The position numbers are program-made. From the NCBI RefSeq assembly GCF_988242995.1, contig NZ_OZ547043.1: 64,000 bases of DNA, one strand, 5' to 3'. This document shows positions 21,201 to 24,200 of the stretch, piece after piece; position 1 is the stretch's first letter, and each line of letters starts with the position of its first letter.

Positions 21201-24200
21201 CAGCGGTTTTGCCAGTGCGGAACCAATCAGGTTACCCACACAATAAGTGGTGAGAAAAGCGACAAACACTTCCGGCGTACCCAAAATCCATGTGACGTAA
21301 TACATCATCGCTCCACCGCGTACGCACACCGCCAGGATATTGAAAATGGTTAGTAAACCGACAATCCGCCACTGGTCGTTTTGCCAGATATCACGTAAAT
21401 CTTCCCGCATAGACGTCGTTGTAGGTGGTGCTTCAACGCGTTCTTTAGTGGTGAAGAAACAAAATGCCAGCATCATAAATGCCACCACGGAAAGGACCGC
21501 GATACCGCCCTGGAAACCGAGTGGTTTATTATCACCACCAATTAAATTAACCAGCGGCATCATCAGCACAGTAGAGAGCATGCCTCCCGCAGTCGCCAGC
21601 ACAAAACGCCAGGATTGCAGCGAGATACGCTGAGTCGGGTCATTGGTGATTACACCACCCAATGCGCAGTAAGGGATATTAACGATGGTATAAAGTAAGG
21701 TAAGTAGGGTGTAAGTAATTGCTGCATAAATCATTTTTCCGTTCATACTGAGATCTGGCGTGCTATAGGCCAGTACACAGACGATCCCAAATGGCAGTGC
21801 GCCAAACAGTACCCACGGACGAAATTTACCCCAGCGAGAGCGCGTCCGATCGGCCAACAACCCCATGCAAGGATCGGAAATCGCATCCAGTGCACGAGCG
21901 ACCAAAAACATGGTTCCGACAAATCCGGCAGGTATGCCAAAAATATCGGTATAAAAGAACATCATATATAACATTACGTTATCGAAAATAATGTGGCTGG
22001 CGGCGTCTCCCATGCCATAACCAATTTTCTCTTTAACGGACAACACTTCACTCTTCATCTGCTTTTCCTTGATGCTATAGGGGTGCTGAGACCGATAACG
22101 CATTTTGTAAACCATCCCTGTGAGAGCGAATATTCCGATATCTGGTTATTAATTTATGATTCTTGTTTTATGTGATCGTGGTAGCGTTAATTCCGCTCAT
22201 ATATCATTGTAAAATATGGGTTTTATATGAATTATAATGCTTTCGTGATAATACGCTGCGTGTATTAGGCGGAAAAAACTGATCTGGGGGATGTAGAAAC
22301 TCAAGGAAGTAGCTATAATGCGCCCCGCCTCCATGTAGCAATCGAGGCGCGGAAGATCGTCGTCTCCGGTGAGGCGGCTGGACTTCAAATCCAGTTGGGG
22401 CCGCCAGCGGTCCCGGGCAGGTTCGACTCCTGTGATCTTCCGCCAATTTGCCTCTTCATACGTTCTCCAACCCCTCGTAATACTGTCAATCCAGATATTT
22501 TCTACTGCTCAATATTCAATCGGCTTCAGAAATACCTGGTCAAAGGTTTTGTGATGGACGATGAGCGACAGAAGAATCCGCCAGTCGGTTCTTCTGTCCT
22601 CGAACGCATCCGCGATATGCGCGCCAGCATGTGCCGTGTTTATTTGCAGGTGATTTACCCCCTGCTGGCTCTCAGCCAACTGTATCGCCATTAAGGTGAA
22701 GATGTTGTTTCACACGCCCCAGAACACCTTTTTTATACGACGATTCTATTCCTTTAACCGCTGGCAAAAAAAACTGACCTATAAACTTCACCAATAATCA
22801 GACTGCCATCAAGATTAATTTTTTCATTTAATATATCAAATCAACTTGTTTTATTTTTACTATCAAAAATAGCTCATTGCCTTACTATAATTAATATATA
22901 AATTCGGTGATTAATTCTTAACATGCTTTTGCTAATAATCTCAATTGCTGGCCCTATAATATTGCGCTAGCATTGTTTTCTGGTTGTATCAGCGATACTC
23001 AAAAATTCTTAATACAATACTCATTCGACTGGTACTTATTTGTAACTCAGTTATATTTTGTCGCCCGGTGATTCAGAAGAATGCAAAAAACGGCTACCAC
23101 TCCATCAAAAATACTTGATCTCACTGCCGCGGCATTTTTACTTGTCGCCTTTCTGACGGGTATTGCGGGCGCTCTCCAGACTCCTACCCTAAGTATATTC
23201 CTCGCAGATGAACTGAAAGCCCGTCCTATAATGGTAGGTTTTTTCTTCACCGGTAGCGCTATTATGGGAATTCTGGTCAGTCAATTTCTGGCAAGGCACT
23301 CCGATAAACAAGGCGACCGTAAATTACTAATTCTGCTATGTTGCTTATTTGGAGTGCTGGCCTGCACGCTTTTTGCGTGGAATCGCAACTACTTCATTCT
23401 GCTCTCAACGGGCGTACTTCTGAGTAGTTTTGCTTCCACCGCAAACCCGCAAATGTTCGCCCTCGCCCGTGAACACGCCGACAGAACAGGCCGTGAGACG
23501 GTAATGTTCAGTACATTTTTACGTGCTCAGATCTCGCTTGCCTGGGTTATCGGGCCACCGCTCGCTTATGAACTGGCAATGGGATTTAGTTTTAAAGTGA
23601 TGTATCTCACCGCTGCCATCGCATTTGTTGTTTGCGGACTGATAGTCTGGTTGTTTTTGCCATCAATACAAAGAAATATTCCTGTCGTTACCCAACCCAT
23701 AGAAATTTTACCCTCCACCCACAGGAAGCGGGATACGCGGCTACTTTTTGTGGTCTGTTCAATGATGTGGGCGGCGAATAATCTCTACATGATAAATATG
23801 CCGCTATTTATTATTGATGAACTGCATCTAACCGATAAACTGGCTGGAGAAATGATTGGTATTGCTGCCGGTCTGGAAATTCCGATGATGTTAATCGCAG
23901 GCTATTACATGAAACGTATTGGCAAGCGGCTATTAATGCTCATTGCTATCGTGAGTGGAATGTGTTTTTACGCCAGCGTACTCATGGCGACGACTCCGGC
24001 AGTTGAGCTGGAATTGCAAATTCTAAATGCCATCTTCCTTGGTATTCTCTGTGGTATCGGCATGCTTTATTTTCAGGACCTGATGCCTGAAAAAATAGGC
24101 TCTGCGACAACGTTATATGCAAATACTTCACGCGTCGGCTGGATTATCGCCGGCTCTGTTGACGGAATTATGGTTGAAATCTGGAGCTACCACGCGTTGT

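Follow-up and report, generated by a model that had tools for sequence, protein, structure and literature searches.

Background

The gene rhuM belongs to Salmonella pathogenicity island 3 (SPI-3), where it lies in a selC-linked region (PMC3680342). Its genomic context has led to the suggestion that RhuM represents a toxin-like domain in defence loci (PMC3710099), and the Pfam family PF13310 (Virulence_RhuM) is named after it. For enteroaggregative Escherichia coli (EAEC) 042, a 21-bp repeat has been described (PMC7058095), as has the eip/eilA/air locus, known as selC-B (PMC7058095, PMC2808357). A further element, selC-A, is lacking in most isolates of sequence type 69 (ST69) according to PMC7058095, which also summarises Sheikh et al. 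2006 on this locus. The annotation of the K-12 strain MG1655 shows a pseudogene, yicT (b4653), between selC (b3658) and setC (b3659). Here we analyse the corresponding interval in a stretch of 64,000 nucleotides from contig NZ_OZ547043.1 of RefSeq assembly GCF_988242995.1, hereafter called the window. An original prediction made from this sequence held that selC is intact and unoccupied, and that it is separated from setC by an AT-rich non-coding spacer of about 630 bp, possibly the scar of a past insertion or excision.

We find that the spacer is ordinary and that the arrangement is already known and annotated in K-12. With a probability of about 90%, the window contains the standard unoccupied K-12-type selC-setC junction, which consists of an empty attachment site, the wreck of a rhuM gene and the upstream region of setC. 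The individual pieces can be identified, the site is empty, and the layout recurs in K-12 as well as in some 46% of the complete E. coli genomes.

Results and discussion

The selC gene and its empty attachment site

The sole transfer RNA gene that ARAGORN detects in the window is selC, which encodes selenocysteine tRNA (tRNA-Sec; anticodon tca) at positions 22351-22445 on the plus strand. It matches Rfam model RF01852 over its full length (model positions 1-91 of 91) with 83.8 bits at a gathering score of 47, and this covariance-model match together with the UCA anticodon identifies it as tRNA-Sec. All 95 of its 95 bases are identical to selC of MG1655, and a single base differs in the 150 bp upstream. 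A scan of 22000-23300 against Rfam at E <= 1 returned no family except tRNA-Sec.

An occupied site would be recognised by an integrase gene adjoining the tRNA gene and by a distal direct repeat of the tRNA 3' end. Neither was found: there is no integrase-sized open reading frame (ORF) between selC and setC, and within the 64 kb the 3' end of selC occurs only in selC itself. Searches with its 26-mer and 16-mer, allowing up to three mismatches, hit no other position in the window, a relaxed local-alignment scan of both strands gave a best other score of 22 against a null maximum of 25, and the short repeats inside the spacer were merely chance-level AT-rich pairs. Partial direct repeats of the selC 3' end are thus not detectable in the window even in the relaxed scan. 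The last 21 nucleotides of selC, GACTCCTGTGATCTTCCGCCA (22425-22445, plus strand), which are duplicated distally in selC-borne elements elsewhere, are present here as a single copy and represent the empty core of the attachment site. The prediction of an intact and unoccupied selC is therefore well founded, with no integrase or island before setC.

The spacer is of K-12 type

Since selC ends at 22445 and setC starts at 23081, the spacer spans 22446-23080 and measures 635 bp, close to the length originally given. It is collinear with that of MG1655, with 607 of 637 positions identical (95.3%), and the homology from selC to setC is full-length and collinear, as expected of a K-12-type selC-yicT-setC backbone. 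The order of the genes is the same, selC is identical, and the spacer lengths are 635 and 636 bp. The differences amount to about 4.7% substitutions and three 1-bp indels, and they cluster in the pseudogene and in the 14 bp next to selC. The K-12-type copy of the pseudogene has an in-frame stop that the copy in the window lacks.

When the spacer was subjected to a megablast search against 5426 complete E. coli genomes, matches with 100% coverage were obtained in thousands. The unoccupied junction as seen in the window, counted with a query of selC plus 55 bp of trailer covered at >=80%, is present in 2493 of these genomes (about 46%), while spacer and setC together are found in 3645. By the difference of the two counts, about 1150 genomes (3645 - 2493) carry an element between selC and this same spacer. 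In the phage and plasmid collections, matches were confined to mislabelled or contaminated records and to distant rhuM genes. In two phage records, MG065686.1 and MG065691.1 (labelled Campylobacter phage A18a and A11a), the K-12-type selC-setC spacer is found at full length with 95.6% identity, most likely as E. coli DNA contaminating those assemblies.

The guanine plus cytosine (GC) content of the spacer is 38.3% overall, which is the 12th percentile of 635-bp windows in the 64-kb sequence, but it is unevenly distributed. Positions 22750-23080 have 30.5% GC (0.5th percentile of 331-bp windows), whereas 22523-22652 have 52.3%. The description of the spacer as an AT-rich non-coding stretch thus applies to the former part only, as the latter is the rhuM pseudogene.

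A fragment of rhuM and its leader

The pseudogene fragment at 22523-22652 (plus strand), which is the yicT of K-12, corresponds to codons about 121-171 of the 345-amino-acid RhuM. A tblastn search with RhuM of E. coli JJ1886 (345 amino acids) aligned residues 121-171 with positions 22524-22652 (36 of 51 identities, E = 7e-19). The translation of 22524-22694 matches positions 52-108 of the 252 in the PF13310 profile with 37.6 bits (gathering score 33.7, E = 2e-9), which places it in the RhuM family. A complete, uninterrupted coding sequence is not present, as only about residues 121-171 of 345 are left; the N- and C-termini are gone, and eight codons are deleted internally. RefSeq annotates 'rhuM, incomplete' at the same place in AF39, EAEC 042 and others, and a literature search on yicT yielded nothing relevant. 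SPI-3, compared here by its published description, also has a RhuM-family gene in a selC-linked region, but it is a large multi-gene island with virulence cargo, whereas the window keeps only a dead fragment of 130 bp. Directly downstream, 22653-22724 (plus strand) may be further degenerate rhuM sequence (codons about 175-197), since local alignment to JJ1886 rhuM (6166-6231) is collinear with a score of 32, compared with a mean of 20.7 and a maximum of 31 for shuffled sequences.

All values of nucleotide diversity (pi) given here are based on seven K-12-type loci. In the fragment, pi is 0.037, near the 0.039 of the third codon positions of setC, and 22653-22724 is with 0.054 the most diverse segment of the spacer apart from its first 14 bp. 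Copies of the fragment elsewhere carry an internal stop (K-12-type and O111:H11) or a frameshift (EC16), and small deletions are found in the trailer or the fragment, of 15 bp in HS4 and 1 bp in EC16. Because its diversity is at the neutral level and other copies are broken in these ways, the remnant fits the behaviour of dead DNA that drifts neutrally.

The segment between the attachment site and the fragment, 22460-22522 (plus strand), is a remnant of the 5' leader of the same resident gene. It aligns with the rhuM leader of Escherichia sp. E1V33 with a score of 48, which was matched by 0 of 1000 shuffles. In E1V33 and the divergent E. coli CUPF09, the homologue of 22460-22522 follows selC or a selC repeat and runs to the rhuM start codon, about 113 bp past the tRNA gene; this is why we regard the segment as rhuM leader. 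A deletion would then have fused the leader to codon 121 in the K-12-type arrangement. The trailer in the window aligns with the selC-rhuM leader of JJ1886 over the first ~10 bp only. A weak similarity (p about 0.01) links the resident rhuM leader to the left arms of CP4-57-like islands.

The upstream region of setC

The gene setC itself (23081-24265, plus strand) encodes a sugar-efflux-family transporter of the major facilitator superfamily (394 amino acids; Pfam MFS_1, E = 7e-41). AF39, the complete genome closest to the window and collinear with it, annotates setC at the equivalent of 23081-24265. The AT-rich region before it, 22750-23080 on the plus strand, is under some constraint and most likely holds the promoter and regulatory sites of setC, as suggested by its GC content, hexamers and diversity. 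Over 22800-23080, pi is 0.015, about 2.5-3.5x below that of the pseudogene or of setC third codon positions; yicL third codon positions have a pi of 0.086. Two exact TATAAT hexamers lie on the plus strand at 22886-22891 and 22955-22960. Scanning the spacer region for terminators gave two weak terminator-like hairpins only, and a search for the H-NS motif TCGATAAATT with up to two mismatches gave two weak, uninformative matches in the AT-rich part. We also considered the AT-rich half as a scar, but this could not be shown, and this half is less variable than the pseudogene half.

Elements at selC in other strains

In occupied comparators, the integrase gene begins about 160 bp past selC. In EAEC 042, selC and the spacer are separated by an 11-kb P4-like element; the core GACTCCTGTGATCTTCCGCCA is repeated identically at the distal end of this element, and the spacer starts just after the repeat. 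The same identical repeat is found in O111:H11, whose selC also carries a P4-like element, and HS4 has an island of the CbtA/YeeU type; in both, the same spacer lies just outside, after the direct repeat. The repeat of HS4, like that of JJ1886, is a 17-nt version with a 4-bp deletion. As the spacer begins right after the direct repeat of the element in EAEC 042, O111:H11 and HS4, it is chromosomal flank and not part of an element. A K-12-like spacer without repeat remnants is essentially the outcome that the original prediction named as speaking against its scar idea, and it effectively rules out a scar specific to this strain.

The 14 bp directly 3' of the tRNA gene (22446-22459, plus strand; consensus about AAATGCCTCTTCTG) are hypervariable. 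Of the 14 sites, 6 segregate, and pi is 0.22, about 15x the value of 0.015 in the 63 bp that follow. Variants of the 14 bp are common to chromosomal flanks and the left arms of CP4-57-like islands, and the variability may reflect exchange within an extended block of attachment-site identity. The island of HS4 sits on exactly the flank haplotype of the window, ATTTGCCTCTTCATACG.

The selC-A element of EAEC 042 (locus extract 3864-14257) is a P4-like satellite with integrase, psu, ogr/delta-like and primase-helicase genes. Right after the integrase it carries an AAA ATPase and DUF4435 gene pair that looks like a cargo slot for defence systems; we take this pairing to resemble the PARIS system. 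In O157:H7 genomes, all that is left of the query is its terminal ~300 bp, with the 3' end of setC and the start of yicL; the spacer and most of setC are therefore deleted at the junction on the side of the locus of enterocyte effacement (LEE).

The selC-yicL interval is filled in different ways

In 844 complete B2-type genomes, of which JJ1886 and DS566-2 are examples, a full-length rhuM is located beside selC (>=80% coverage). The order there is selC, full-length rhuM, a degenerate selC repeat 112 bp past the rhuM stop, a second rhuM remnant (amino acids 170-237), a gene for a hypothetical protein of 165 amino acids, and yicL, without setC. By blastn, homology between the window and JJ1886 ends 10 bp after selC and returns 29 bp before yicL, so that 22456-24346 has no ordered homology to JJ1886 except for the rhuM fragment. 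Both layouts have rhuM directly downstream of selC and codirectional with it, and the window fragment, which aligns to codons 121-171, is 74% identical to the B2 gene at the nucleotide level over 154 columns including a 24-bp gap (about 91-93% over the first ~70 bp). The B2 gene differs in being full length (345 amino acids) and in lying between an island-type left arm and a right arm with the degenerate selC repeat; the second remnant and the 165-amino-acid gene are present, and setC is absent. On the left, its flank matches the left arm of islands in Z142-6 and E. albertii. The ~110 bp past its stop match both the right end of the island in HS4 and the equivalent region of Pseudescherichia vulneris, where a selC repeat is present as well. 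A minimal rhuM islet without integrase is thus seen in two genera (JJ1886 extract 5590-6821; P. vulneris, about 1-1406 bp past selC).

E1V33 and CUPF09 show a third layout, in which about 14 codons of the resident rhuM are left and are followed by fliB on the opposite strand. Because the B2, K-12-type and E1V33/CUPF09 layouts differ, the selC-yicL interval has at least three alternative fillings (setC, the 165-amino-acid hypothetical gene and fliB), and the resident rhuM beside each of them is truncated in a different way. Variation extends to the upstream side of selC, since in CUPF09 (extract 1-470) selC directly follows yicH, and yicI, yicJ and the sugar cluster described below are absent. 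setC belongs to this variable segment; it is missing from B2 strains, E1V33 and CUPF09, where other genes stand in its place, and is an accessory gene limited to part of the species. Among E. coli genomes, none was found that combines a full-length rhuM with a K-12-type leader, the lone full-coverage match being the fliB-type truncation of CUPF09. The idea that the rhuM remnants of the window (amino acids 121-171) and of JJ1886 (amino acids 170-237) are halves of one pseudogene remained unproven; the alignment of window positions 22641-22800 with JJ1886 6809-6925 was not significant.

A scan of species-representative genomes with the 26-mer from the 3' end of selC gave at least 120 loci, a sample that is neither random nor complete. 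Among the matches listed, 91 loci with at least 1.5 kb downstream of selC could be classified. The first feature after selC is a P4-like integrase in 29 of them, rhuM (full length or, more often, fragmentary) in 17, an integrase followed by rhuM in one, and neither in 44. In all 18 Enterobacterales loci that have it, again among the matches listed, rhuM is codirectional with selC. In none of the 119 loci sampled among these matches (non-E. coli or short) was SetC found after selC.

Possible origins of the spacer

The interval can be read as follows. selC is a working tRNA-Sec gene whose last 21 nt, together with about 14 flanking nt, form an empty site for P4-like or CP4-57-like integrases. 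The first ~280 bp after it are the wreck of a resident rhuM that once started about 110 bp downstream of selC. Codons 1-120 have been deleted, as has all that followed codon 171-197 or so, which leaves the leader and then codons ~121-171; this wreck probably drifts neutrally and without function. The last ~330 bp are the upstream region of setC, under some constraint and most likely with promoter and regulatory sites. We infer in what order the ancient deletions and replacements took place. Several points weigh against this picture. The diversity of 22460-22522 is low (pi 0.015, 2 of 63 sites segregating), which a dead leader does not explain, although it is statistically not distinct from neutral. 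The diversity comparison is drawn from only seven sequences, and the score of the rhuM remnant past 22652 exceeds the shuffle maximum marginally (32 against 31). On the plus strand of the spacer region, scanning for consensus promoters turned up no full sigma-70 site, so that we infer the setC promoter rather than locate it. Finally, since precise excision leaves no trace, the lineage could have been occupied in the past, and the island of HS4 does sit on the same flank haplotype.

One alternative, the idea of the original prediction, is that a selC island inserted and was later excised imprecisely, either in this strain or not long ago in its lineage, and left the spacer as a scar. That selC is heavily used, with about 1150 genomes carrying an element before the same spacer, that ATTTGCCTCTTCATACG is also the flank of an island, and that the first 14 bp after selC are hypervariable would all agree with it. 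Yet the spacer is full-length and collinear with MG1655 and 2493 unoccupied genomes, it contains no partial selC repeat, integrase fragment or island end, and in occupied strains all of it lies outside the element, so we consider such a recent scar very improbable. The idea of a scar is right only in an ancient, species-wide sense: the internal rhuM fragment is a shared relic and not the product of an event in this strain. Equally improbable as a recent scar is that the rhuM-like stretch still functions, either as a regulatory RNA that follows selC or as a small protein (a 99-amino-acid ORF at 22395-22694). In the window no stop interrupts the frame of the fragment, and the adjoining 22460-22522 has the low diversity just mentioned, but the ORF would have to start with TTG inside selC, only 51 of 345 residues remain, and no Rfam family is matched. 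Diversity at the neutral level, the stop in K-12-type and O111:H11 copies, the frameshift in EC16 and the deletions in HS4 (15 bp) and EC16 (1 bp) also speak against a function.

More can be said for the view that 22456-24346, rhuM remnant and setC included, is what is left of a single ancient selC island that carried setC as cargo and whose distal repeat has eroded, but we still regard it as doubtful. The whole block is replaced by other DNA in B2 (844 genomes), E1V33 and CUPF09, SetC is absent from the 119 loci mentioned above, and GC is 46.1% in setC and 30.5% in its upstream region compared with 49.6% in the window. A further hint is the similarity of the resident leader to CP4-57-like left arms. 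No distal repeat was found, however, and this likeness is marginal (p about 0.01); either gain of setC here or its loss elsewhere would fit, and rhuM could just as well be an old chromosomal neighbour of selC. In a related and equally tentative proposal, rhuM is a long-standing partner of selC across the Enterobacterales, sometimes as an integrase-less cassette of ~1.2-1.4 kb that can be moved in trans by selC-specific integrases, and yicT and setC are fossils of serial island turnover. Such a cassette, in E. coli B2 and P. vulneris, may consist of an island left arm, rhuM, a right arm of ~110 bp and the selC repeat. If this were true, the selC-yicL interval of Escherichia would be a replacement hotspot into which setC, the 165-amino-acid hypothetical gene or fliB were swapped, cutting rhuM differently, and the hypervariable 14 bp would record exchanges between island and chromosomal arms.

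For the window itself, the preferred reading of a standard unoccupied junction has little consequence beyond annotation: selC should be recorded as an empty, intact attachment site, and the spacer deserves a yicT/rhuM pseudogene feature instead of being left featureless. The "backbone" beside selC in K-12 is itself old island-type or decayed DNA, which is a modest evolutionary point.

Neighbouring features in the window

A virulence-type island had been predicted about 4 kb further on, between yicS and nepI, and it is indeed located there at 26926-45069, about 4.5 kb past selC. According to the AF39 annotation and the ORFs of the window, this is the published selC-B locus (eip/eilA/air, type III secretion). 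It contains a chaperone of the SycD/LcrH type (eicA-like), eipB and eipD (SipB-like and SipD-like translocator and tip proteins), the HilA-family regulator gene eilA (32191-33888), and air/eaeX (33940-45069, minus strand), which encodes an inverse autotransporter of 3709 amino acids. The edges of the island show neither a selC repeat nor an integrase, and it should not be annotated as selC-integrated. The backbone of the EAEC 042/ST69 locus is the same, with selC, spacer, setC, yicL, nlpA and yicS followed by eip/eilA/air before nepI; unlike the window, EAEC 042 has the 11-kb selC-A element between selC and the 21-bp repeat. The window thus shows a combination already reported from ST69 and related strains, in which selC-B is present and selC-A absent (PMC7058095; PMC2808357).

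Upstream of selC, between yicH and yicI, a sugar cluster of eight genes (11110-18053) encodes a BglG-family antiterminator, fructose-type phosphotransferase system (PTS) components IIA, IIB and IIC, two aldolases, a ROK kinase and a lyxose/mannose isomerase. The antiterminator gene, which adjoins yicI, is also present in JJ1886. We assume that this cluster is the 'frz' operon of extraintestinal pathogenic E. coli (ExPEC), and that K-12 lacks it. Between nepI and yicN (46683-47349) lies a pair of genes for a RelE/ParE-family toxin and a helix-turn-helix protein, annotated as such in AF39 and JJ1886. The adeD gene (49479-51245) is an intact ORF of 588 amino acids in the window and is annotated as frameshifted in AF39, the closest genome.

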